DNA from: a virus
Strand: one strand, 5' to 3'
Length of the DNA: 64,000 nt
Virus record (IMG/VR): IMGVR_UViG_3300045988_143931
Location: 32,001-96,000 of that record
Made by a program: the position numbers and the translations under genes. Positions 4,373-62,680 of the stretch are shown one piece after another. The notes beneath the pieces were generated by a model, which was not told where the DNA came from, did not search any database, and saw only the letters and a list, made by a program, of their open reading frames with translations. Each line of letters opens with the position of its first letter. Positions within the stretch are counted from its first letter, which is position 1.

Positions 4373-5257
4373 TTACCTCGCTCTATCACATTCGTTAAAA
4401 TCTAAAAGCATCTTATATTTATATTCTCCAAATCTTTCTTTCCAACGCTGCTTTGCTTTATCAGTATCCCAACTAAAAGGCATCATATGGTAATTGATGA
4501 GGAAACATGTATCTAAAACAACATCAGAATTAACATGATACATAGCTGTCATGTATTGATATGAACCGTAACAATGATGCTGATAATAATGAGCTATCCC
4601 ATCTTCATCAAATGTTTGTGTACTCAATTTGCCTAAATCGTGATACAAAGCACCTATTCTGAATCTTGCAGGATAAGCATATTTTGTAGAAAATAATCTT
4701 GATGCATATTTGCAGTGTTCAAATAAATTCATTGTATGATGCGGACTTTTCTGATCAAATCCTCTCATATCTGGAATATCATTTGGTTCGTAATCATTTA
4801 ATAAATTATGAATAATAATCTCATCGAATCCTTCCTCGTAGAACGGAATCTGAAATTTTCTAATCTGCTTATCCAACACAAAGTCAGGTACAGGATGTTC
4901 TCTATGTAGATTATCTTTTTTACACTGTTCAAATGGCTTTGGAATAATTACACATACTTTTCTGACATTTAAGCCATTTACTTTCATCATAATTGCTCTG
5001 CGAGATTTCATAGTCAGATTAGTCGCATCTGCGATTACATTCTTTTTATTCTCCAAATTCTTACGGATTCTATCATGAAAAATTTTGAATACTTCTTTAT
5101 TATGTTCTTGATTTTCGTAATTACCAGTCAATTCCTCACGAATTGCATCGGATGATACGATTATTGTATTTGGATTCTCATTGGCAATCTGAGTGGTAAT
5201 GGTTGACTTGCCACTACCACTCAAACCACACATAATATACAATGTAGGTTTATTCAT
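4373..5257 (-). CDS. polynucleotide kinase fused to an HD phosphohydrolase (RNA end-healing, Pnk-HD)
   Basis: N-terminal P-loop GLSGSGKST with an AAA_33/T4 Pnk-like layout. C-terminal HD signature: H...LYHDLGK and further His residues. Overlaps the ligase gene by 8 nt. Confidence 0.8.
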   Translation of the reverse strand: MNKPTLYIMCGLSGSGKSTITTQIANENPNTIIVSSDAIREELTGNYENQEHNKEVFKIFHDRIRKNLENKKNVIADATNLTMKSRRAIMMKVNGLNVRKVCVIIPKPFEQCKKDNLHREHPVPDFVLDKQIRKFQIPFYEEGFDEIIIHNLLNDYEPNDIPDMRGFDQKSPHHTMNLFEHCKYASRLFSTKYAYPARFRIGALYHDLGKLSTQTFDEDGIAHYYQHHCYGSYQYMTAMYHVNSDVVLDTCFLINYHMMPFSWDTDKAKQRWKERFGEYKYKMLLDFNECDRAR

Positions 5258-6569
5258 TTAAAGTCTCCTCGAATAACTCTTCAGCTTCTTCCATATCAGG
5301 CACATCAGATGTATCTTTAGCAATCCCCTCAATTACCTTAAATTCAAACACCTTATCCTTATAAGCTGTGAATGTTGCTCTGTTATCAATACGAACAACT
5401 ACACCTTCAGCAACATGTGTCTTACCGATTTCATCTGCTGGCATACCATCAAGATATTTATTTACTCTTTCTTTCAAATCTTCTGGTGTAGTAAAAATAA
5501 ACTTCTCTAAATCAGGTACATGCTTAACGCCCAACTTGTCACACCATACTTCTACAGTTTCCCAAGGCACTTCAACAACTGTTCCGTCTGCTGTTGTCAT
5601 TGTCATTCGATATACATACATCTCATTTTCGCCTTGGTCACAGCCATATGAGAATGTTGTGGTGTCACCAAATTTCTTAGTAAATTCTTTTTCCTTAACT
5701 CCCTTATTAGATACTGAACCCATAATTGGTGTTGTTTCATTTACATATCCGACAATTTCATAGAAAATTTCAGCACCTTCAGGAAGCTTGTCTTTTAATA
5801 AATCGTGGTACTTCTTTCTAAATCTATTATCAGAATAATATCCATCATTCTTTGTCATATCCTTTAACACAACCCTTCTGCTACCAGATACAACAGAAAC
5901 TTCTCTTATAACCTTTGGCTTCATATGTAAAAACTTTCTCAGCTTACTATTCTTCTTTGTAACCTTAACAGTCTTCATAGTACGAGCCGATGTTCCGTGG
6001 AGCTTACGAGTAATATAAATTGTATCTCCTGGCTTAAATGCTGATATATTATATGCAAGCTGTGCAGTATCTTTATGCTCCTCAAAAAATGGATATGATA
6101 CTGTTTCTTTCTGAAACTTATTTTTCTTCTTTAAATTATTTCCATTACCTCTTGAACGATTTTTTCCTCTTGGAATATATTTTTGACAAATCTCATGACC
6201 ACCAAGAACTGTAATCTGATCGCCATCTTTTAATTTTGAAATATCTGTATACTTAGAAAGTGTTTCAACAGGTAATACAAGTCCTTCTGACTTCTCACCT
6301 CTAAGTCTAATAGCGGTTACATTTCTCTTCTCAGCATCCATATAACCACCAATGTTGTTTCCATTCTCATCTTTCTTTCTGACAAGGTTATTATCTGCTG
6401 CATACTCAAGTGATAACTGACCGTCAGATGGGAAGAATACTACTTTCTGTCCTTCCTGATAATTCAAATCTACAATTACATTCTGTCCAAATACCTCTAC
6501 ACACTGTAACCTATCAGCGTTACTATGTTTTCTTAATCCTTTTAATGTTGTGATATAAGCACAATACAT
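5250..6569 (-). CDS. ATP-dependent RNA ligase, Rnl5 (DraRnl/NgrRnl)-like with N-terminal OB domain
   Basis: KLHGTS nucleotidyl-lysine motif I (ITRKLHGTSAR). N-terminal HSNADRL...RLRGEKSEG OB-like domain, as in N-terminal-OB RNA ligases. Confidence 0.7.
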   Translation of the reverse strand: MYCAYITTLKGLRKHSNADRLQCVEVFGQNVIVDLNYQEGQKVVFFPSDGQLSLEYAADNNLVRKKDENGNNIGGYMDAEKRNVTAIRLRGEKSEGLVLPVETLSKYTDISKLKDGDQITVLGGHEICQKYIPRGKNRSRGNGNNLKKKNKFQKETVSYPFFEEHKDTAQLAYNISAFKPGDTIYITRKLHGTSARTMKTVKVTKKNSKLRKFLHMKPKVIREVSVVSGSRRVVLKDMTKNDGYYSDNRFRKKYHDLLKDKLPEGAEIFYEIVGYVNETTPIMGSVSNKGVKEKEFTKKFGDTTTFSYGCDQGENEMYVYRMTMTTADGTVVEVPWETVEVWCDKLGVKHVPDLEKFIFTTPEDLKERVNKYLDGMPADEIGKTHVAEGVVVRIDNRATFTAYKDKVFEFKVIEGIAKDTSDVPDMEEAEELFEETLNE

Positions 6570-24157: not shown

Positions 24158-24230
24158 TGTGCCATATGGGAGTTGAACCCATGACACCTCGATTAAAAGT
24201 CGAGTACTCTACCTACTGAGCTAATGGTAC
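24158..24230 (-). tRNA. tRNA-Lys (anticodon UUU)
   Basis: Hand-folded cloverleaf. Acceptor GTACCAT/ATGGCAC has one A3:C70 mismatch. D arm GCTC/GAGT. Anticodon stem CTCGA/TCGAG with loop CTTTTAA. T arm ATGGG-TTCAACT-CCCAT. No encoded CCA. Confidence 0.85.
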
Positions 24231-24234
24231 GAAA

Positions 24235-24307
24235 CTAGACTGGTGGGATTCGAACCCACGAATGACAGAATCAAAATCTGTTGTGTTGACCACTTCACCA
24301 CAGCCCA
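24235..24307 (-). tRNA. tRNA-Gln (anticodon UUG)
   Basis: Hand-folded cloverleaf. U1:A72 with G73 discriminator. Anticodon stem ACAGA/TCTGT with loop TTTTGAT. T arm GTGGG-TTCGAAT-CCCAC. Confidence 0.85.
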
Positions 24308-30082: not shown

Positions 30083-31084
30083 TTACATATTGTTTAACAC
30101 ATCTTTCATCCCCACTGCACCATTTGCATAATTATTAACTGTTGTATTTACATTACTATGTCCTAACTGCTGCTGTACAAATGCAAGATTTCCATTTCTG
30201 TTCATTATACTAGCATAATAATGACGCATCATATGTGGTGTTATACCATTTCCATAATTCTCAAATATCTGTTTGATATTTCTTTCTGTTGTACGAGTTC
30301 CATTTTTATTTACAAACACAGCTTCTGTATCAATAATGTTACTTAATGTGCTTCTGTATTCTAACCACTCTCTTATAGCTTTTAAAGCAGATCCGCTAAG
30401 ATATACCATTCTATTTTGCATTTCTCTGTACACACCTTTACCAAGAATAGTAATATAAGGCATTTCTTCATCTAAATGCAAATTAGATAAATCCAAACCA
30501 GCAAGTTCAGATTCTCTTATTCCAGTTCCTCTTAATACTCGAAAAATAGCAATATTTCTATTTCTTACTGAAATATCCTTTTTCCACATTATTTTTTCTT
30601 CCATATCATTAAGTTGCTTTTCTGTTGGAAGTTTTTTAGTTAAATTGTTTCCAGATGGAATCCCTTTATAAGTTACATCTTTAAAGAATCCATCTTTAAT
30701 TTCAGTTCCCTTCACTCTACTCATATAATCCCAAAAACTACTTATTATATGTTTTCTAGTTTCTAATGTCGTAGGTGACATTCCATTCTGTTCTTTAGTC
30801 TTTAAATATAACGTGATATCTTCTGCCATAATGTCAGTAAAATCTGATGGCTCAATATCTGAAATATTTGTTTTATCAATAAGTTTCTCTTCAATAAACC
30901 AATTGAGCAAATCTACAATAACTCCAAGATAATTTAAAGCACCTGCTTTACTTTCAATTTTAACAGTGAAATATTTTCTCATATATATAGGAAAATTTAA
31001 CTCATCCAACTTCCTATTAAGCTTTTCAGCATTTTTGTTTTGTACTTCTATTTTGTAACACATATTCATCAACCTCACTTTCAT
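30083..31084 (-). CDS. tyrosine recombinase/integrase A
   Basis: Catalytic pattern: GTGIRESEL (R), HMMRHYYAS (HxxR), LGHSNVNTTVNNY (H...Y). The start is uncertain because it overlaps the upstream ORF. Confidence 0.85.
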   Translation of the reverse strand: MKVRLMNMCYKIEVQNKNAEKLNRKLDELNFPIYMRKYFTVKIESKAGALNYLGVIVDLLNWFIEEKLIDKTNISDIEPSDFTDIMAEDITLYLKTKEQNGMSPTTLETRKHIISSFWDYMSRVKGTEIKDGFFKDVTYKGIPSGNNLTKKLPTEKQLNDMEEKIMWKKDISVRNRNIAIFRVLRGTGIRESELAGLDLSNLHLDEEMPYITILGKGVYREMQNRMVYLSGSALKAIREWLEYRSTLSNIIDTEAVFVNKNGTRTTERNIKQIFENYGNGITPHMMRHYYASIMNRNGNLAFVQQQLGHSNVNTTVNNYANGAVGMKDVLNNM

Positions 31085-31969: not shown

Positions 31970-32257
31970 TCATATACAAAATTTCTGCCCACATTGAGGA
32001 CAATATGTATTTGTAGAATATACATTACTACCACAAATACTACACCGATGTACAATTTTTGATTTTCCCAACAAGCCAAATTCTCTTTCGTTAGTTGTTG
32101 GGATTCTCTTTTGCTTTCTTACACATTCTTCTATAGTATCTATATTAGCCATTAAATCTTTAATATCACCAACAGTTATAACTCCATTTTCATTACTATA
32201 TGCAATTTTAAATTGTTGTATGGAAATCAATGCCGCATTTATTTCTTCTTCATACAT
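31970..32257 (-). CDS. hypothetical protein with C-terminal zinc ribbon (95 aa)
   Basis: CSICGSN...YCPQCGQKF. Confidence 0.6.
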   Translation of the reverse strand: MYEEEINAALISIQQFKIAYSNENGVITVGDIKDLMANIDTIEECVRKQKRIPTTNEREFGLLGKSKIVHRCSICGSNVYSTNTYCPQCGQKFCI

Positions 32258-35133: not shown

Positions 35134-36153
35134 TTAAAAAATAGATTTTGCAATTATATTAGCAGCCATATCATTATACTGATTTAAATTATTTTTCAAA
35201 TATATCTTTGTTGTTTCGGTTCTAGCATGTCCTAATAACTGCTGAACCACATATATATTTTCATCTGTCTTTCCCAACATAATATTTGCAAACGAAGCCC
35301 TTAATTTATGAGGTGTTACTGAATATCCAAGAGCTTCCTTTGTATATTTTATAACAATATCAGATAATGATCTTTGTGTCATACGAGTTTTTGATTTTGA
35401 AATGAATAACGCATCTTCATTTTTATCTATTATTTTTTCTCGATCACACATCCAATCTAAAATAGCCTTTTCTAATTGAGAACTCATAGTAAAAGTCCTG
35501 TCTTTATGCCCCTTCTCAATTACACTTTTAATAATATGATTTTCAAAATCAATATCTTCAACATTGATTTCGCTTAATGCTGTTTCACGTATTCCAGTTT
35601 GCATAAATAACATCATAATTGCTCTGTCTCTTGATTTCCATTTATATTGCATAGCAACTGACCTTCTATTTCCTGCTCCACATTCTACAGCCAATAGTAC
35701 TTCTTTTAAATCATCTTCATCTAAGAATTTTCTATTAACAAAATCTTCTCCACGAACCCTTTTTATTTTATTCATAGGATTTTCAGTTATATAATCATTC
35801 TCCGTTAAGAAATCAAAAAAACTTTTTAATACACTATGATAACATTTCCTGTAAGATAATGAAGATTGTTTTTTATTTCCATTATTATCTGTTATATATT
35901 CTATTGAATCCAAAAAACGAGTAATGTCAAACTTTGTTATTTCAATAACTTTAATATGTTTAATATCACTCGGATTAATGTAATATAAAAATTTTGCTAT
36001 TTTTCTTATATATTCTCTACATGCTGTTGGTTGCCTTCCTGATTTAAATTCATAATAATATTCTGTTACATATTGTGGTAATAAAGACAATATTTCTTTT
36101 ATATTTTTTTCTATTTGTAATGAATGTTCTAATCTACCTTTCATTTTTATCAC
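35134..36153 (-). CDS. tyrosine recombinase/integrase B (start possibly ATG at 36144)
   Basis: Catalytic pattern: QTGIRETAL (R), TPHKLRASFAN (HxLR), LGHARTETTKIYL (H...Y). Confidence 0.85.
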   Translation of the reverse strand: MIKMKGRLEHSLQIEKNIKEILSLLPQYVTEYYYEFKSGRQPTACREYIRKIAKFLYYINPSDIKHIKVIEITKFDITRFLDSIEYITDNNGNKKQSSLSYRKCYHSVLKSFFDFLTENDYITENPMNKIKRVRGEDFVNRKFLDEDDLKEVLLAVECGAGNRRSVAMQYKWKSRDRAIMMLFMQTGIRETALSEINVEDIDFENHIIKSVIEKGHKDRTFTMSSQLEKAILDWMCDREKIIDKNEDALFISKSKTRMTQRSLSDIVIKYTKEALGYSVTPHKLRASFANIMLGKTDENIYVVQQLLGHARTETTKIYLKNNLNQYNDMAANIIAKSIF

Positions 36154-52201: not shown

Positions 52202-53134
52202 TTATGCTGTTCTCTTTTTAATAAAAATAACCTTTGTACCTTCAATCACTCTTGACTGTTCAAGTCCAAGTCCCTCTACAATCATATCCTCAACATAAAG
52301 AGATACCGCTGTTCTAAAATCTAAAATAGGATATTTTGCACAAGCATTTGCCTTTAAATTCTCTGGTGTAATCTTTCTGAACTCTTCTGATAGAAATTTC
52401 TTTGTTTCGCTTCTGTCTTGAGCATATAACTTATACATATCTCTTAATGCACGAGTTACATAACTTACATATCCACTGTGCTTTCTATCAAATCCAGAAT
52501 CTCTTATTATGTCATATACATATTCTGCACAAGCTCCGTTGTCAATTGAACAGAGACTCAATGCTTCTGTATATGAACCAAGAACTCCACTTCCTCTATT
52601 GCCTGCATTTTCTCTATACTCAAACCCATAGATGTTTTTCATTTTTTCAAGTGTTTCTGTTGCCGGATCATGTAATACAAGCATTGCACCATGCTTCTGA
52701 ATTGGCGTTACCTTTCTAACTGATACACCCTGAAATGCATACAGTTCTGCTTCAAATGCAACTCTTTCAGAATCTTCCGTTGGTGCATTTAAGATTAACT
52801 GCACCTTTAAATCTTTGTATTTGTCTTTATCTACAATCTGACTTGCAATCCATCTTCCATAGCCATCAACTATATACACTTTACCTTCTTCCCAATGTGG
52901 TACACCAAGTAAAGGCATGAGCTTTCTTTCATCCCAATTATTAGTGAGATATTTTAAATCTCTTTCCGTTCTTTCGTCTGTCTGATACCGTGAATCAATT
53001 TCCATTAATTCAACAGGTATTCTAATAATTGCAATGTCTTCATGTATATCAGTGTATGCCTTTGTAAGACCTTCTAACTTGTCAACACTTCCCTTTGACT
53101 TTCTTCCTGTTACTACTTCAAACATTTTGCACAT
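52202..53134 (-). CDS. ParB/Srx-fold N-terminal domain protein (310 aa)
   Basis: IDSRYQ...LKYLTNNWDERKLMPLLGV...VYIVDGYGRWIA follows ParB-like nuclease domain logic. Confidence 0.55.
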   Translation of the reverse strand: MCKMFEVVTGRKSKGSVDKLEGLTKAYTDIHEDIAIIRIPVELMEIDSRYQTDERTERDLKYLTNNWDERKLMPLLGVPHWEEGKVYIVDGYGRWIASQIVDKDKYKDLKVQLILNAPTEDSERVAFEAELYAFQGVSVRKVTPIQKHGAMLVLHDPATETLEKMKNIYGFEYRENAGNRGSGVLGSYTEALSLCSIDNGACAEYVYDIIRDSGFDRKHSGYVSYVTRALRDMYKLYAQDRSETKKFLSEEFRKITPENLKANACAKYPILDFRTAVSLYVEDMIVEGLGLEQSRVIEGTKVIFIKKRTA

Positions 53135-54072: not shown

Positions 54073-54408
54073 TTATCTTACAAAACCTGAATATTGAGCT
54101 TTGATAATTGTGTCGTCATATATGATATCTGTATAATTGTCGTGCATTATTAATGAGCAGATATCTCCCTTGTACCAATCTTCGGAATTATCTATAAATG
54201 TCCAAAGGTTTCCGTTGAAATCCTTGGTTGTTATTTCGTTTCCGTTTACACACTCAACCACTGTTGACAGTGGGTATGTGTGTTGATTGTAAGTTGCCTT
54301 TTGAACTGCTCTACCTATAAATAAGGCAGAAATTGAGAGCGTGACTGTTAAGATTACCATGAGCAGTTTTCTCTTTTCCTGATGTGTAAATTTGATTTCT
54401 TTTCGCAT
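54073..54408 (-). CDS. membrane-anchored protein (111 aa)
   Basis: N-terminal TM helix LLMVILTVTLSISALFIG. Confidence 0.6.
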   Translation of the reverse strand: MRKEIKFTHQEKRKLLMVILTVTLSISALFIGRAVQKATYNQHTYPLSTVVECVNGNEITTKDFNGNLWTFIDNSEDWYKGDICSLIMHDNYTDIIYDDTIIKAQYSGFVR

Positions 54409-54445
54409 TGCTTTAGTTTCCTTTCTTGTAGTATTGATTTTGGGT

Positions 54446-54482
54446 ATAAAAATAGCACCCTTTGCGTTTTGCTTTGGGTGCT
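54446..54482 (-). terminator. rho-independent terminator
   Basis: AGCACCC/GGGTGCT 7-bp stem followed by ATTTTTAT on the minus strand. Confidence 0.7.
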
Positions 54483-54492
54483 TTCTTGAATA

Positions 54493-54708
54493 TTATAATT
54501 CTTCTAAGTCTGCAAGATTATGTCTGAATCTTGTTCGACTATTGGTTTTACTGTCTACAACAGTATATTTCCCTTTCTCTTCATTGATATAGAATCCATC
54601 TTTGTTTACTTTTGATGTTTTCCATTTATAGCCTTCGTTTTCACATTCTTTCCATGCCACTTTTTCGGCATTTACTGAATACTGCCTTTTAAGTTCTTCT
54701 TTGTTCAT
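54493..54708 (-). CDS. hypothetical protein (71 aa)
   Basis: Start moved to MNKEELKRQY, which has SD GGAGGG. First gene after the non-coding zone. Confidence 0.55.
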   Translation of the reverse strand: MNKEELKRQYSVNAEKVAWKECENEGYKWKTSKVNKDGFYINEEKGKYTVVDSKTNSRTRFRHNLADLEEL

Positions 54709-54759
54709 AGTATTAACCCTCCTATATAATTTATATTTTATTTTCGACATTAAATGTCA

Positions 54760-54834
54760 ATGTGCTTGTAGGAATCGAACCTACTGATAAGTATAATGTT
54801 GTTAGCATTATATTATTCACCACATATAAGCACA
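54760..54834 (-). tRNA. tRNA-like element: perfect acceptor and T arm, defective D and anticodon arms (possible anticodon AAC)
   Basis: 75 nt. Acceptor TGTGCTT/AAGCACA is 7/7 paired. T arm is GTAGG-TTCGATT-CCTAC. A TAATG-CTAACAA-CATTA stem-loop exists, but the D stem and the variable region do not fit a canonical cloverleaf. Confidence 0.4.
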
Positions 54835-56018
54835 AATAAGATAAGTAGCCCTCACATCCTCTGTTATATATTCACTTATTTCCTATTAGGTAGACCTCAA
54901 ACATTAAATGGTATATTCACTTATTACTTATCATCAGGTGACTAACCCTTATGCAGTCAACAGTTTATTATTTTAATTCGCTCCAACTGTTACGAATACC
55001 TTACACTGTTTTATACAAACCGATTGCAAGACATACGGTTTTATCAGTGACATTATTCTCGAACTGATTACAGAATATACTATCAACCTAGTTACACTAG
55101 ACAGTAGGATTTATAGGCAGGGATTGTACTGCTCATACCTCATACACGAATGTAGATAGATACATTCAACATTAGTGTTACCACTAATTCTTGTGTATTG
55201 TTCCACTAGCAACTTTTCAAATAACCAAGCATAAGTTTTCATCGTTTTACCGAAACGCCAGTCGCTAACTATATACTGAGCTATCGAATCATTGTTAATT
55301 TTTATGATAGTGAATTGTGTCAATCACTCACTATATTTGTACCAAGATGCTATGTGATAGTGTTTACACACTATGTATTATGTACTTGCCACCAGCCACC
55401 ACTTTTCATGCGCTGTTCACCAAGTTTTCCCGAATATAGAGTTTATATTCGCTGACCTAGCCACTTGGGAGTGCTCCGTAACACCCTTGTCAGCCCTATA
55501 CGACATCTCCTCGTTTATGGTTCTCGCAAACCACACCCTTGACCGTTCAATCATATGTATTCTTGTAGTGTTGTGCTGATAGTTTAGAGCAGAACATCTA
55601 CTTGTCCACAAAACCTGAAGTCTATCGTCACCTACTTATTAACGCACACCTCCTAACTAGGTTGTATTTTGTGTAAGTGTATTGATGTCGTGTGTAGGTT
55701 AATCACACTAGAATACACATACAGTAACCTTTATGCATTGCGTCTTTAAATTTTGGGTGACTTTAATAGACCGTTTGGGAAGAACTGTCGTACCTCTACG
55801 GCTTATCACGGTTTTATTTGTATTGTGTTTAATGTTATGTATTTTTATTGACATATGGGTTGAGTAAAAAAGAACCCTATCTTGACGAAAATGTAAGTCA
55901 AAAATAGGGTTGATGATGGAGAACCCATCACAAAATGATGATGTAGATTTTGTGACCTACCCACTCAAAGAGTGGGTAACGCACTAGGCTTGACACGGTT
56001 TATACTCGCCTAGTCGAG
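54835..56018. ncRNA. candidate large structured non-coding RNA region (strand unresolved; minus favoured by context)
   Basis: ~1.2 kb with no SD-led ORF. Visibly higher GC than the flanks. Many nested hairpins, e.g. 55357-55374, 55431-55451, 55677-55718, 55873-55911 and 55958-55978. Confidence 0.45.
55958..55978 (-). other. strong 9-bp hairpin TACCCACTC-aaa-GAGTGGGTA just downstream of the 56019 gene
   Basis: Perfect stem with no U-tract. It could be an RNA 3' stabiliser or part of the structured region. Confidence 0.5.
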
Positions 56019-56447
56019 TTATTTAGCCATACGGCTCTGCTGATTATCCATGAACTTTGTAGCATCTTCGGCAGACTTGAACTCGTAAATCTGCACATAC
56101 TTGTCATCCTTTGCAAGTGCGTCATAGACCTTATCACCCTTGCCAAGCTTAGTTGCACCAAAGTCTTCAGTCGCAGACATCTTGATGGCAAACCTAGCCT
56201 TGCTTGACAGAAATGCACCCTTGACTGTACGGACGAACTTGCCATCGCACTCAAGAGAGCCGACAATCCGTGTAGACTTCTTAGATGCTGTCTTAGGCTC
56301 TGACTTAGGTGTTGTGTCTTTAGGTGTCTCTGTCTTAGGCTGTTCAACTGCTCCAAGTCCTAAGAGTTTAGCGATTTTCTGTGCTTCTGTAGCGTTAATC
56401 TGATAAGCTACTCCATTAACGATAACTGCATTCTTTAATTCTTTCAT
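56019..56447 (-). CDS. hypothetical protein (142 aa), compositional outlier
   Basis: Start moved to MKELKNAVIV, which has SD AAAGG. Noticeably GC-richer codons than every other gene here. Has a Pro/Lys/Thr-rich linker between two domains. Confidence 0.6.
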   Translation of the reverse strand: MKELKNAVIVNGVAYQINATEAQKIAKLLGLGAVEQPKTETPKDTTPKSEPKTASKKSTRIVGSLECDGKFVRTVKGAFLSSKARFAIKMSATEDFGATKLGKGDKVYDALAKDDKYVQIYEFKSAEDATKFMDNQQSRMAK

Positions 56448-56649
56448 AATTACCAACCTTTCTGTCTCATCTTAGAGACTTAAAAAAATATTTTTTGTTC
56501 ACTGAACTGCTCGTCAGCCGTTCAGCTTGGCTACACCTTATCACAAAAAAATTCTGCTTGTTTCGGTGCAAAACTTCCAAAAATGCTTATTTTTCGTGGT
56601 TTTGAGTATGGCGAGAATGGGGGGTGGCAAAAACGGATTAAACCCTTAT

Positions 56650-57480
56650 GAAATGTAAAACCAGGTATAGCAGGTTTATTTACACACCAAGTCAAAAAAT
56701 TTTTTATTAAAAATAAATTATCTTATTCTCAATCCATTAAATCCCCAATAAAATCAAGCAAAATCCCAATTTTCCCATCTCAAACTCCATATCGTACCCC
56801 ATATCGCTCAAACCTACTAACCAAGCCACTTTCACCCATCTTACAACCCAAAAATCAAACTTTCATTTCATTAAAAATTCACTCACAAATCCAAAATTAT
56901 CCTTATTTATAAGCACTTTTACCGATAACCATTTTTAATCCAGAATCATCATTATAATCAATTACATAAATCATAAATCTCTAATCAACAATAAGGGGGC
57001 TACATAAAAACCACATCAAAAAATCTAAAATTACCTATATACATCACAAAAACAGCCAAAAAAATCCAATACAAACCATCAAAAATCCTACTATAACAAT
57101 GCCAAAAACTCCCATCTCTCATCTAATCCCTCTATCATGCCCATATACAGTATTTTTATTTTACCCTACCAATAACACATAAAATCATTTTTACCTACCT
57201 AAATGCTCAAAATACAAGGTCAATTTTTTACATCACCCAAAATCACATTAACTATCTATATATATTCATGCACATTTACTATAAATAATATTATCAATTC
57301 TCACACTTATATAAAAATCAATTCTCATAGCTCAAATTTCAATTTTTACCCTCTACCCTAACAACTAGCCACCTGACATATAAAAATCCAAAATAGACTC
57401 AAAATCATACATTTTTCTCCTTATATTCCATGTAAAGAATTTTATATCAGAACAAATTTAAAAAAGAGAATATAAAATTG
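56650..57480. other. G-depleted (A/C/T-only) non-coding tract at the strand-switch point
   Basis: My hand count finds only about 25-30 G in ~830 nt on the plus strand, while C is several-fold more common. There is no ORF. AAAATC(C/A) words recur. Confidence 0.7.
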
Positions 57481-57511
57481 TATAAATCACATTTCTAAGG
57501 AGGGTTTACAA

Positions 57512-58486
57512 ATGAATACATATTTAATACCAACAACGGCAGCATATTGTTATGAACCATATGATTACATTTATTTTGTTTATGCTGATACACCACAAGA
57601 AGCTTATATAAAAGCATGTACTAAATTACAAGGAGAATATATACCACTTGAATCACAAGAATATGAATCATATCCATTTAAATTGTACAAGCCAGATGAT
57701 ACAACTATTTTTCCATTCCATGAATCAAGAAAATATGATATACTTGCAGAAGCATTTAAAAATACAGAAGGAGCAGAATATATGGCGTATTTCAATGTAA
57801 ACTGGAATGATTATATAGAAGATATAATTAAAATAGCAGATAAAGAAAATTGGTCTAATGATACATACCCTAATAATAAAATTCTTACAAATTATATGGT
57901 TCACACATATAAAAAATTATCTTCTGAAAAGAACGTAATTATTAATAATGAATATGCACTATTTAACACAGGACTTTTTACCGAATTCTATCAACCAATA
58001 TACGCATATCAAGATAAAAGCAAAAATGGATTAAAGTTTCTTACATCATATGATTTAGGAAATATGAATATTTCTGATCGCCCACCAAGAGCAAATTATT
58101 TTGATGATCCATCTCTCTTATTATTTGATTGGCACTACGAAATAAACATTAATTATAAACATATATTGAAAGATATTAATAATATTGAAAGAATTCCCGA
58201 AAAGCTTAAAGATAGCAAAAATATTCTTAACAATCTCAATGGTTCAATAGAAACTATGAAGAAGCGAGTATCAGCTAATTATAAATTGGCAATACCACAA
58301 TATTATGAAAATAAGATTCAGTTGTTACTTCCATTATGCTTAGAGGATGATACTACTCCATCATTAGCTTTAACCGTAACTAAAGTAGGAAATTATTATC
58401 AAGGTCACACATGTTTAACACTTGATATGGCATATAATAATGCTCGTCTTATTGCAAAACCAGAATCTAACTGGTTATCAATATAA
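57512..58486 (+). CDS. DUF3825-like protein (324 aa)
   Basis: SD AAGGAGGG. The C-terminal blocks NTGLFTEFYQPIYAY, NYKLAIPQYYENKIQLLLPL and TCLTLDMAYNNARLIAKPESNWL resemble DUF3825 as I remember it. Confidence 0.5.
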   Translation: MNTYLIPTTAAYCYEPYDYIYFVYADTPQEAYIKACTKLQGEYIPLESQEYESYPFKLYKPDDTTIFPFHESRKYDILAEAFKNTEGAEYMAYFNVNWNDYIEDIIKIADKENWSNDTYPNNKILTNYMVHTYKKLSSEKNVIINNEYALFNTGLFTEFYQPIYAYQDKSKNGLKFLTSYDLGNMNISDRPPRANYFDDPSLLLFDWHYEININYKHILKDINNIERIPEKLKDSKNILNNLNGSIETMKKRVSANYKLAIPQYYENKIQLLLPLCLEDDTTPSLALTVTKVGNYYQGHTCLTLDMAYNNARLIAKPESNWLSI

Positions 58487-60051: not shown

Positions 60052-61026
60052 ATGGAACAAAAAGAATTAAAAATCGATCCTGAATTAAGGGATTTATTAC
60101 CACCACTTACTGATGATGAGTACAAACAGCTCGAAAAAAATATTGTAGAAAATGGATTTGATAAAAATTTTCCTATTATGGAATGGCATGGATTCATTGT
60201 GGATGGACACAATCGCTATTCTATCTGTAAAAAACACAATATTGAGTACGTTGTTGGTACTCTTGGGTATGAGACGAAGGATGAAGTTATGGAATGGATG
60301 TTGGATATCCAACTTGGCAGACGCAACTTATCTCCTATTCAAAGAATTGCTGTGGCTGAAAAGTATCGACCTATTTATGAAAAGCAAGCAAAAGAAAGAC
60401 AGGCTACTTCAACTGGTGGAGCTAATCCACAGCTTACACCAAATCTGGTGGAAGCTGACAAAACTAATAATCGTTCAGAAAATGAAACCAATTCAAAGTT
60501 GGCTAAAATTGCAAATGTTGGAAAAGAAACTTATAGACAAGCAAAACGTGTTCTTGATTCAAATAATGAAGAACTTAAGAATCGTGTTTTATCAGGTAAA
60601 ACTTCTATTAGTGCTGGCTATAAAGAATTACAGAATGAGAAGAAAAAAGAACAAATATCTGATAATAAAGATAGAGAATATAATACTGAACCACCAACCA
60701 CACCCTCTCCTACTATTCAACCTTCTCAATCGTCTCAAAAAAATCAAGTTAGTGAAGAGGTAAGGCAAATATGCGAAGACCTTAAAACTGAAAAGTCAAA
60801 AGAATATCTTGATTCTATTTGGAATTACAAGATTGACATAATTGAATGTATGAATACTGGATTTGAAAGATTTTATGATGGATTTGTTAGTATTCTTAAT
60901 GATATGGAAAATCGTGTAACTAAATCAGAATTAGATGAATGCATTACCAATGCGGAGAATAATATAGCAAAACTATTAACCGCTATTGAATTAGCAAAAA
61001 AAATAACATTAAAAACGGAGGATTAG
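60052..61026 (+). CDS. ParB/Srx-fold N-terminal domain protein with C-terminal HTH-like region (324 aa)
   Basis: LLPPLTDDEYKQLEKNIVENGF..PIMEW.GFIVDGHNRYSICKKH is a typical ParB-N block. SD GAAAGGAAAG. Confidence 0.7.
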   Translation: MEQKELKIDPELRDLLPPLTDDEYKQLEKNIVENGFDKNFPIMEWHGFIVDGHNRYSICKKHNIEYVVGTLGYETKDEVMEWMLDIQLGRRNLSPIQRIAVAEKYRPIYEKQAKERQATSTGGANPQLTPNLVEADKTNNRSENETNSKLAKIANVGKETYRQAKRVLDSNNEELKNRVLSGKTSISAGYKELQNEKKKEQISDNKDREYNTEPPTTPSPTIQPSQSSQKNQVSEEVRQICEDLKTEKSKEYLDSIWNYKIDIIECMNTGFERFYDGFVSILNDMENRVTKSELDECITNAENNIAKLLTAIELAKKITLKTED

Positions 61027-61029
61027 ATA

Positions 61030-61875
61030 ATGAAATTAAAAGACTTAGTAAAAGGAACAAAAGTAACAGATAATAAGATTGCACATAAGGAAGTACCAAT
61101 TGATAAATTGGATGCAATGCTTAACTATCAGAGAGATATTGATATGAAACGTGTAGAAAAACTTAGTAGTGATGAATATTTTGATGAAAACGAAGTAGAT
61201 GAAGTAAAAGTTAGCGTTAGAGAAGATGGTTCTATGAAAGTATGTGATGGTCAGCATACTATTGCAATTTTAAAGATGAGAGGATGGACGACTGTACCGT
61301 GTGAACTTCGTTATGGTTTAACTATTGAGGAAGAGAATGATTGGTTTACCATAACTAATACAAAAGAAAAGCCACAGAATAGAAAACGCACACTTACATC
61401 TCAGATTAATGGTACATATGAAAAAAATAAGATTGAACAGGATTTTAATAATTGCATAAAAGCACTTGGCTTTAAGTTAGATATTTTTGGAGAAGAACCA
61501 GGAAATGATTATAAAATTAAGTGTCCTGCAAAACTATTAGATATGTATAAGGAATATTCGTCAAGAAATGACGTAGATGGCTTTATTGAATGTATGGATT
61601 TAGTCAAGGGCTGTTGGAATGGAAATTCAAAATCATTGCAGTGGAATTATATTAGGGGAATGTTTGACTTTTATGAAACATATAAAGGTATTTTTGACAA
61701 TAAGAGACTTATTACTTCTGTCGGGAAAAAATCCCCATCTATCATTAAAGAAATTGCAGATAATGATAAATATACAAAGAAACCATCTTTAAAATATGCA
61801 AAGATTTATGTAAATGAATACAATTCTGGTTTAAATAAGAACAAAAGATTAAAAATGTCCTTATTAGAAGATTAA
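61030..61875 (+). CDS. ParB/Srx-fold domain protein (281 aa)
   Basis: VPIDKLDAMLNYQRD...KVCDGQHTIAILK carries the DGQH(R/T) motif. Starts 4 nt after the previous gene. Confidence 0.6.
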   Translation: MKLKDLVKGTKVTDNKIAHKEVPIDKLDAMLNYQRDIDMKRVEKLSSDEYFDENEVDEVKVSVREDGSMKVCDGQHTIAILKMRGWTTVPCELRYGLTIEEENDWFTITNTKEKPQNRKRTLTSQINGTYEKNKIEQDFNNCIKALGFKLDIFGEEPGNDYKIKCPAKLLDMYKEYSSRNDVDGFIECMDLVKGCWNGNSKSLQWNYIRGMFDFYETYKGIFDNKRLITSVGKKSPSIIKEIADNDKYTKKPSLKYAKIYVNEYNSGLNKNKRLKMSLLED

Positions 61876-61894: not shown

Positions 61895-62680
61895 TTGCCA
61901 AACTATGTAAAAATTCCACGAGAAATCATCTATGATAAAGATCTCTCATCTAAGCGTGTAATAATCTTCTCATATCTTTGCACAAGACGTTCACTTGATG
62001 ACACGGTGGCATTTTCTACAACAGAACTTTGTCACTGGTCTAAACTGAAACCTAATTACAGAGATGGGAAAATAAATCAAAAATATTATGAAGTTCTATT
62101 ACTTCTCTCTCATTATGGATATTTTGAATCATGTCCTGATTTTGAGAAGTGTCTAAAAGAAAACACCAATTCGGTGAAATATCAGCAAGTACAACTAAAT
62201 ATTGAAAAATTCGATGTGCCTGATAATTTTGGAATCATTTATTTTGATGAATTGGATAAAATATTGAATTTTAAGGAAGAGTTAAAAGGTAAAAATATAG
62301 ACCTTGCGAGAATGTCATCTGCTTATATCTTACTCTTACTTTCCTATATTCGTGTCAATTTGAATCGTATAGAAGATAAACCCCTCTGTTGCTATCGGTA
62401 TTTCAAAACGATTTCAGAAGATATTGGACTTTCTGAGAGATATATAGGACGCATAGTTGATATTTTGGAAGAATTAAAAATTATAAAATGTCAACCTATG
62501 AAGAGAGAAAAATATATTAAAGATGGGAAAGAAAAATATTTAACTACTCCAAAGGTATTTGTTGATTATAGACATTTTATAAATGATGAGCATGGTCAAA
62601 GAATTGATAATAAATATGATCCATGTGAGGAAATCAAAAAACAAATAGAGATTTTGGAGAACAATAAGTTAAGAACATAA
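61895..62680 (+). CDS. putative replication initiator or winged-helix DNA-binding protein (RepA_N/DnaD-like, tentative)
   Basis: TTG start after GAGGTG. The N-terminus YVKIPREIIYDKDLSSKRVIIFSYL resembles RepA_N-type openings. A second wHTH-like segment is LSERYIGRIVDILEELKIIK. Confidence 0.35.
   Translation: MPNYVKIPREIIYDKDLSSKRVIIFSYLCTRRSLDDTVAFSTTELCHWSKLKPNYRDGKINQKYYEVLLLLSHYGYFESCPDFEKCLKENTNSVKYQQVQLNIEKFDVPDNFGIIYFDELDKILNFKEELKGKNIDLARMSSAYILLLLSYIRVNLNRIEDKPLCCYRYFKTISEDIGLSERYIGRIVDILEELKIIKCQPMKREKYIKDGKEKYLTTPKVFVDYRHFINDEHGQRIDNKYDPCEEIKKQIEILENNKLRT

Follow-up and report, generated by a model that had tools for sequence, protein, structure and literature searches.

A large structured non-coding RNA of human-gut phages flanked by a Pistol ribozyme and a tRNA-like element

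The DNA studied here is a 64,000-nucleotide (nt) stretch of the IMG/VR virus record IMGVR_UViG_3300045988_143931 (positions 32,001 to 96,000 of the record; hereafter the window), in which the block at 54760-56018/56019 encodes a conserved, structured, non-coding RNA on its minus strand. Read on that strand, as are all features of the block, the gene of a 145-amino-acid (145-aa) protein (56456..56019) is followed by a Pistol self-cleaving ribozyme, ~1.1 kilobases (kb) of non-coding sequence, an element resembling a transfer RNA (tRNA) and the next gene (54750..54493). We propose that the sequence between the ribozyme and the tRNA-like element is a large multi-domain non-coding RNA that is bounded by these two elements and processed from an operon transcript; its predicted mature form, from the Pistol cut up to the tRNA-like element, would be ~1121 nt long (54835..55955). 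We assign a probability of roughly 0.8 to this whole explanation, and consider it highly probable that this place encodes a real, large structured RNA under selection, with a Pistol ribozyme on one side and a tRNA mimic on the other.

Homologous loci were collected from IMG/VR, 13 of them with the upstream 145-aa protein as query and two more by an alignment-based search. The alignment used for the structure (A3) comprises 18 non-redundant sequences of human-gut phage contigs, pairwise <98.5% identical, and was made with MAFFT from sequence alone, so that it was not fitted to a structure. The RNAalifold consensus of the 18 sequences contains 271 pairs in 41 helices, and 96.4% of the alignment cells are paired, versus 32-41% when slid by 1-3 columns and 90.4% in shuffled controls. 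The number of pairs changed on both sides is 89, compared to 10-16 in the slid and 48.6±3.9 in the shuffled controls, none of the 500 shuffles reaching 89. Counted by cell, changes on both sides amount to 328 versus 20-31 slid and 99.8 shuffled, and the covariation score is 0.229 versus 0.03-0.055 and 0.120, respectively.

The same helices also indicate the strand. Read in the minus-strand sense, they hold 374 G-U cells and 170 non-pairs, versus 56 and 488, respectively, for the complement. For a 505-nt core, the fold of the minus strand has a z-score of -3.24, with none of 100 shuffles as stable, compared to -0.83 for the plus strand. The G-U asymmetry and the fold stability thus pick the minus strand unambiguously. 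A sequence-only reading of the window, made before this analysis, had proposed a large ornate structured RNA with a tRNA-like end at this position, and the covariation in 41 helices across 18 homologues, the strand-specific G-U pairing and the covarying tRNA-like element bear this out. All five hairpins drawn in that reading were found, three of them being covarying consensus helices (55374..55357, 55455..55428 and 55725..55670); the one at 55873-55911 belongs to a lineage-variable insert absent in five of the 18 relatives, and the one at 55958-55978 (TACCCACTC/GAGTGGGTA) is stem P3 of the Pistol ribozyme. Three features described below, namely the ribozyme, the constant link to the 145-aa gene and an intact anticodon-like arm in the tRNA-like element, were all absent from it.

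A replication origin or a genome terminus had been raised there as alternatives. A DNA-level element of this kind (origin, packaging site or terminus, with hairpins acting in DNA) would be consistent with a long, hairpin-rich block free of open reading frames (ORFs), located ~0.5 kb from a divergent intergenic region with ParB-like and replication-initiator genes beyond it. However, the G-U count (374 against 56 cells) is a strand asymmetry of RNA type, the 41 helices are kept by compensatory changes, and the two elements that bound the block are RNA-processing elements in the same orientation. Furthermore, neither iterons nor repeat arrays are found in the block, only one 45-nt duplication, the cumulative GC skew runs straight through it and turns only near 58.8 kb, and the locus is internal in contigs of 71-183 kb rather than at their ends. 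Neither an origin nor a terminus is supported by these observations, and we consider a DNA-level element very improbable.

The block, in which the sequence-only reading had already noted the absence of ORFs, is non-coding by several measures. The longest ORFs within 54760-56018 on both strands are 70, 68 and 64 aa, and stop codons of all three types (TAA, TAG and TGA) are common whichever of the six frames is read, so that a recoded ORF is ruled out and a reassignment of stop codons offers no rescue. Among the 13-17 relatives compared, no stop-free stretch of at least 30 codons is kept open in frame in the majority: the best-kept one is in frame in 8 of 16 relatives, and most are so in 1-4. 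Insertions and deletions are modular, entire hairpins or domains being gained or lost with boundaries that follow helices and not codons. A decayed or recoded protein-coding gene would find some comfort in the length of the block, which fits ~370 aa, and in the fact that some phages reassign stop codons; given the stops in all frames, the lack of a conserved open stretch, the position of the insertions and deletions and the compensatory nature of the substitutions in stems, its probability is close to nil.

The rate at which the RNA diverges tells the same story of constraint. The identity of the RNA core levels off at a plateau of 72-80%, versus third-codon positions of the adjacent gene that go down to 50-56%, and between two of the relatives (loci are designated by L-numbers), L006 and L008, the gene is 93-94% identical and the RNA 74-75%. 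This plateau, together with the incongruence between gene and RNA, argues for purifying selection on the RNA combined with mosaic recombination. The base composition also differs from the surroundings, with a GC content of 0.364 in 54835-55955 versus 0.314 in the window and 0.328 in the left flank, reaching a maximum of 0.42-0.43 across 55250-55700. The GC enrichment reported earlier is therefore real, but it is modest in size.

At the 5' side of the block, the segment 55951..56019 matches the Rfam Pistol model (RF02679) over all of its 68 positions (1-68) with 60.0 bits, for a gathering threshold of 34.5, and an E-value of 2e-8. It overlaps the stop codon of the 145-aa gene by a single base, the first of the ribozyme and the last of the codon. 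A match above the gathering score occurs at the same place in every homologue that contains this part of the locus, with 38-74 bits in the relatives. The stems P1, P2 and P3 are present together with the pseudoknot formed by the loop of P1 and a downstream strand; across 15 sequences, 98.6% of the cells of these 24 pairs are paired, and eight of the pairs changed on both sides (three of four in P1, one of seven in the pseudoknot and four of ten in P3), the 3 base pairs (bp) of P2 being invariant. By score and by helices, this 5' boundary element is thus a bona fide member of the family. The G-U linker between P3 and P2, aligned to the ',,' positions of the model, is invariant in all sequences and corresponds to 55956|55955; from this alignment to the model, the scissile bond is predicted to be G55956|U55955.

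The sequence next to the predicted cut has a second potential partner. The first nine nt after it (UCACAAAAU, 55955..55947) pair with AUUUUGUGA at 55936..55927 to form a 5'-terminal hairpin (55927..55955; helix 4, columns 72-83 with 95-106 of A3), which is 96% paired and covaries, A-U being replaced by G-C in five sequences and by U-A in three. Note that this hairpin re-uses the CAC of Pistol P2, so that it represents an alternative fold, accessible after cleavage. We infer a conformational switch following cleavage, which would seal the new 5' end.

At the other side of the block, the segment 54760..54834 is called tRNA-Val(aac) by ARAGORN. Its consensus consists of a 7-bp acceptor stem, a 5-nt unpaired spacer, a rod of ~13 bp capped by a CUAACAA loop that hardly varies, and a T stem of 5 bp carrying a UUCGAUU loop; no D arm is supported, and there is neither a variable loop nor an encoded CCA. 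In nine of the 25 consensus pairs, both sides have changed with pairing retained: the acceptor stem UGUGCUU/AAGCACA switches from UU/AA to AA/UU in L031 and L039, and the T stem alternates between G-C (eight of 12 sequences) and A-U (four of 12). The element of the sequence-only reading at 54760-54834 thus keeps its acceptor stem and T arm, intact and covarying, and still lacks a supported D arm, but the anticodon arm that had been called broken is in fact a conserved, extended and covarying rod. It is not a canonical tRNA: no match reaches the gathering threshold of the tRNA model (RF00005, 29 bits), and the only tRNA-type match at E≤10 is tRNA-Sec with 18.9 bits (E=1.7), compared to 63-66 bits for the two true tRNAs of the window; the elements of six relatives have no Rfam match at E≤1; and the cloverleaf lacks its D stem and variable loop, with the anticodon called by ARAGORN falling at position 32 and not 34-35. 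The features of a minihelix are present, with a 7-bp acceptor stem, a 5-bp T stem and a T loop of the UUCRANY type. RNase P, RNase Z and the CCA-adding enzyme all recognise their substrates by such an acceptor/T-arm minihelix, and an RNase P site is predicted at 54835|54834.

How the RNA might be produced can be pictured from these elements and from the absence of others. A scan of 54300-57700 for promoters and terminators gave no promoter excess over shuffled sequence and no intrinsic terminator; with no promoter or terminator of its own evident, the RNA would be made within the operon headed by the 145-aa gene and receive its ends by processing. The minus strand would be transcribed as part of this operon, with the 145-aa gene first. 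The Pistol ribozyme would then cut itself at G55956|U55955 and part the messenger RNA (mRNA) from the downstream RNA, the upstream mRNA keeping the ribozyme as a 3' cap. In a second step, the new 5'-OH end UCACAAAAU would leave the 3-bp P2 and pair with AUUUUGUGA into a flush hairpin of 9-10 bp, which should render the cut irreversible and protect the 5' end. Finally, RNase P would cut at the tRNA mimic (54835|54834) and free the ~1121-nt RNA. With a ribozyme on its 5' side and an RNase P-type substrate on its 3' side, an embedded RNA would in this way obtain defined ends. Our confidence in this processing scheme, which is read from sequence, is moderate.

The same place within an operon, where neither a promoter nor a terminator of the block itself is evident, would also suit a part of the mRNA that acts in cis, either as a giant 3' untranslated region or stabiliser of the 145-aa gene or as a processed leader for the downstream genes, and the Pistol stem-loops would indeed be left to cap the 3' end of the upstream mRNA. 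Yet Pistol cleavage would part the ~1.1-kb structure from the upstream mRNA, and the tRNA-like element should detach the downstream mRNA too. The downstream genes vary (an 85-aa gene, HicA, RelE/helix-turn-helix and others, depending on the relative), whereas the RNA is conserved, and in some relatives a terminator-like hairpin and then a T run come directly after the tRNA-like element. We also know of no cis-regulator with ~40 conserved helices. A cis-acting element is therefore unlikely in our view, and an RNA processed out of the operon is preferred.

The terminator-like site was observed in L006, L008 and L010, where a GC-rich hairpin and a T run stand just 3' of the tRNA-like element (columns ~1508-1545 of alignment A1); it is absent in the window. 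As it occurs in some relatives only, it may be that part of the phages stop transcription at the RNA and the rest continue past it.

Several points weigh against our explanation. Pistol activity is predicted from the sequence, and three well-conserved positions of the Rfam consensus differ in the copy of the window. The tRNA-like element is picked up by ARAGORN in the majority of loci, but it is absent in L050 and shortened in L013 and L035; since it is not universal, the mechanism that makes the 3' end may vary or be dispensable. Domain 4 of the RNA (see below) is absent in L047, and L004 has only the 5' 668 nt, so that the RNA is partly dispensable or some assemblies are chimeric. In the latter locus (L004/L029, IMGVR_UViG_3300029477_000234, L004:6438-9650), the RNA is 99% identical to that of the window over these first 668 nt, then stops and is fused directly to the anaerobic ribonucleotide reductase genes nrdD and nrdG; L004 is either a natural deletion variant reduced to domains 1 and 2 or the product of a chimeric assembly. 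The family is restricted to one phage clade, hence many of the compensatory changes counted above are co-inherited and not independent. The 145-aa protein has no match in a profile search of Pfam, PHROGs or PDB, and its AlphaFold model, with a pLDDT of 53, is too poor for a fold search. Lastly, the transcript, its cleavage products and the RNA ends are deduced from the sequence.

We compared the window over 54300-56500 (2.2 kb) with all 4227 models of Rfam 15, using cmscan with permissive filters and reporting matches at E≤10. Besides Pistol, only four weak matches below threshold were obtained (snoR09, Plastid-ycf2, tRNA-Sec and algC), which are taken to be due to chance, and six divergent relatives gave nothing besides Pistol at E≤1. 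The GOLLD (RF01998) and ROOL (RF03087) models match neither the window at E≤10 nor the six relatives at E≤1; this search, which the sequence-only reading had left to be made when it kept membership of these families open, speaks against both. Likewise, there is no Rfam match to OLE, HEARO, RNase P RNA, tmRNA or group I/II introns. A divergent member of one of these large families might be suspected on account of the size, the ornate fold, the phage location and the link to a tRNA-like element, all reminiscent of GOLLD and ROOL. But none of the four weak matches is to a large RNA family, ARAGORN finds no tmRNA, and no reverse transcriptase or intron-encoded protein is encoded beside the block, so that we see only a slim chance for this alternative. 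Instead, the body of the RNA is a new sequence and structure family of large ornate phage RNA, with a new, self-contained way of making its ends. No paper describing it was found, although part of it could be listed unnamed, for example among the 10,006 candidates of a survey of structured RNAs in phages (PMC10690425).

As a kind, the RNA has the attributes of the large ornate phage RNAs: it exceeds 500 nt, its helices covary, it is non-coding and phage-borne, and it is linked to a tRNA-like element. GOLLD RNAs are ornate, longer than 800 nt, found in phages and prophages, often near tRNAs and in some cases with tRNAs embedded in a linker, and are divided into a conserved and a variable region (PMC12286853). 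ROOL RNAs, likewise of phages or prophages, average 581 nt and occur in several phyla near tRNA islands, with many multistem junctions, pseudoknots and no identified protein partner, and both GOLLD and ROOL form RNA-only homo-oligomeric cages whose function is unknown (PMC12286853; PMC5737381). The RNA described here is like GOLLD in being very large, supported by covariation, phage-borne and composed of conserved and variable regions, and unlike it in its ~1121 nt, its 5' Pistol ribozyme, its non-canonical tRNA-like element, its single upstream gene and its restriction to one clade of gut phages. With ROOL, it shares being a large, multistem phage RNA, but not a match to the model; an end of ROOL defined by a ribozyme was not found reported in the literature covered.

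The closest functional parallel to the 3' side is eukaryotic. The 3' ends of the vertebrate long non-coding RNAs MALAT1 and MEN-beta arise from an RNase P cut at a downstream tRNA-like structure (mascRNA). Here too, a long non-coding RNA is followed by a tRNA-like RNase P site and would acquire its 3' end without a terminator; the likeness is functional only, with a cleavage that is predicted in our case, and MALAT1 is nuclear and has no 5' ribozyme. Y RNAs, which at ~100-200 nt are far smaller and are encoded beside the Ro60 gene, offer another comparison; no Ro60-like gene was found among the neighbouring genes scanned. Bacterial Y RNAs (YrlA) have a tRNA-mimicking module as one domain (PMC4201824), a feature that they share with our RNA. 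Theta ribozymes, which resemble that of hepatitis delta virus, lie beside tRNA genes in gut phages and are implicated in tRNA-based recoding (PMC10879173). They are of another class and adjacent to tRNAs, whereas here the ribozyme lies 1.1 kb upstream of the tRNA-like element with the large RNA in between. Pistol ribozymes themselves are frequently found near phage-related genes, with no biological role given (PMC4604425). The context here suggests that the ribozyme makes the 5' end of a large RNA and uncouples it from the mRNA; no paper linking Pistol to a large RNA or a tRNA-like element was found in the literature covered, which does not include the Pistol discovery paper.

Following the predicted mature RNA from its 5' end, the terminal hairpin is followed by a variable hairpin insert (55857..55926; helix 5) closed by GGGUU/AACCC and missing in L031, L039, L045, L047 and L052. 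Domain 1 is a multi-branch domain of ~330 nt (55485..55811; helices 6-18), closed by long-range helices between 55811..55779 and 55511..55485 that are also recovered by the minimum-energy fold of the single sequence. It contains the invariant blocks CGUGAUAAGCCGUAGA, UUCCCAAACGGUCU and AGGAGGUGUGCGU, and is found by nhmmer with E=1e-74 as one copy in the window, each of the RNA domains being single-copy there in profile searches. Within domain 1, the motif AGGAGGUG (~55657..55650), presumably fully complementary to the 3' end of 16S rRNA (ribosomal RNA), is conserved except in L013, L035 and L050, which have AGGUGGUG. It is followed by stop codons and not by a conserved ORF. Ribosome binding of GOLLD has been reported in pull-down assays (PMC12286853); taken with the complementarity of AGGAGGUG, a contact with the ribosome is conceivable.

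Domain 2 (55307..55484; helices 19-24) is made of five covarying helices, among them the hairpins at 55431-55451 and 55357-55374 of the sequence-only reading; 30 of its 55 pairs show a change on each side, and its terminal loop AUUGACA is invariant. It is separated from domain 3 by a variable expansion segment (55199..55306), delimited from the alignment and from folds of sub-alignments, which spans ~110 nt in the window and the near-identical L001, ~200-250 nt with a closing UAUCC/GGAUA helix in 11 other relatives, and an intermediate length in five (L010, L041, L045, L052 and L037). Domain 3 (55106..55198; helices 27-31) consists of three hairpins, in which 16 of 31 pairs changed on both sides; its invariant loops are a GUAA tetraloop of the GNRA type (55181..55178) and a UACAAUCC loop. 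A candidate 5-bp kissing contact, GAUUG/CAAUC, could join 55325..55321 in domain 2 (AUUGACA and the preceding base) to 55126..55122 in the UACAAUCC loop of domain 3. Note that both loops are invariant, so that covariation cannot test this contact.

Domain 4 (54937..55083; helices 32-38) is highly conserved where present; besides its loss in L047, it is partly missing in L006. It probably contains an H-type pseudoknot, with S1 formed by 54997..54992 and 54981..54976 and S2 by 54991..54985 and 54965..54959: a change from C-G to U-A in L008 and L011 favours S2 and breaks the nested alternative. A systematic search for pseudoknots from stacked covarying columns returned mostly noise, from which only this pseudoknot and the GAUUG/CAAUC candidate were kept. 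The last part before the tRNA-like element is a 3' accessory domain (54835..54936), found in 11 of 18 relatives and closed by an AAGUA/UACUU helix that covaries (C-G to U-A); it holds the 45-nt tandem duplication (71% identity), at 54842-54931, just before the tRNA-like element. The self-complementary runs in hairpin loops of the RNA are of 4 nt only (UUAA, UAUA, UGCA and UCGA).

The distribution of the family was assessed with patterns derived from the RNA itself. In IMG/VR, the DNA pattern GATAAGCCGTAG-N12-20-CCCAAACGG recovered the same viral contigs as the search with the protein. In metagenome contigs it gave 22 stretches, one of which (L046) was rejected as a chance match; the named records among the others are human-gut assemblies. 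A looser pattern from domain 2 returned 37 stretches in IMG/VR, and all of those outside the known contigs were judged to be chance by nhmmer. No blastn match to the region was obtained among 50,697 INPHARED phage genomes, in near and distant modes, or among the PLSDB plasmids, and two different RNA patterns had no match in the GTDB representative genomes. The only hint of the host comes from a 685-aa protein of the phage that is 62% identical to those of Bacillus phages of ~155-165 kb. We take the block to be a gene of a human-gut phage with a large genome, and its presence in many human-gut metagenome assemblies makes a high abundance in this ecosystem, which is of medical relevance, likely.

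The 145-aa gene (56019..56456) lies directly 5' of Pistol in the window and directly upstream in every locus that bears the RNA, including those found by the RNA pattern alone; in the further loci examined, the gene-free gap is 1.3-1.5 kb each. The protein is lysine-rich and basic; a K/T/P/E-rich linker, variable in length, joins its N-terminal mini-domain to a C-terminal domain of ~85 aa. Tandem repeats of 15 nt at 56298-56345 encode this linker, whose length varies by repeat gain or loss. In a database holding 5.8 billion proteins, the family falls into ~360 clusters when grouped at 90% identity, and the alignment-based locus search and a second protein search returned only this same compact family, with no distant relatives. 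The constant pairing with one small protein gives a handle on the function of the RNA.

As to this function, the RNA may act in trans as a stable architectural RNA, either in an RNA-only assembly like those of ROOL and GOLLD or in a ribonucleoprotein with the 145-aa protein, an idea suggested by analogy that we hold with low confidence. The module is the first in its operon and adjoins a divergent intergenic region, with toxin-antitoxin-like, Bro-N and YonV_C genes among its neighbours. The RNA probably acts in early infection, again a low-confidence assignment, and a role in host interaction drawn from its first-in-operon place and its neighbours is speculation. In its most ambitious form, our explanation would have this RNA as an undescribed class of >1.1 kb, excised by its own Pistol ribozyme and host RNase P, that works as an autonomous RNA machine, RNA-only or with the 145-aa protein, and provides the first concrete role for Pistol; we find the case for and against this form evenly balanced.

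Few non-coding RNAs are both large and intricately folded, and time and again such RNAs have proved to be ribozymes or surprising RNA-only assemblies. Leaving aside ribosomes and introns, the present one would rank among the largest structured RNAs known, and a new ~1.1-kb class with ~40 covariation-supported helices is a target for cryo-electron microscopy and biochemistry. Its architecture suggests a role for Pistol in which a structured RNA is freed from an mRNA and its 5' end is passed to a protective hairpin. If true, it would also be a phage example of a 3' end made by RNase P at a tRNA-like element, a principle otherwise known from vertebrate long non-coding RNAs.

Other observations concern the surroundings of the block. 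A promoter candidate near 56695 (TTGACT...TATACC) was dropped for its 20-nt spacer. Genes of the window at 52205-53134, 60052-61872, 30086-31084, 35137-36153 and 61895-62677 are ParB-like (three), tyrosine-integrase-like (two) and replication-initiator-like (one), which suggests that the element may be temperate or plasmid-like, yet neither RNA pattern occurs in the GTDB representatives. A polynucleotide-kinase-like gene and an RNA ligase gene stand side by side at 4376-6569 on the minus strand, as in the RNA-repair pair of T4, and the same phage encodes tRNA-Lys(UUU) and tRNA-Gln(UUG) at 24158-24307; tRNA-Lys is a classic target of bacterial anticodon nucleases. The chemistry of the kinase and ligase would fit the predicted 5'-OH and 3'-OH ends of the large RNA, and one may speculate that these enzymes modify or circularise it through these ends. 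Lastly, the ~720 nt of intergenic DNA that separate the divergent gene blocks upstream of the 145-aa gene (56700-57420) have a minus strand almost devoid of C, with 3.3% C, 25% G and 41% T, corresponding to a GC skew of -0.72 to -0.78 on the plus strand; the equivalent region of more distant relatives is moderately C-poor, with ~10-11% C.

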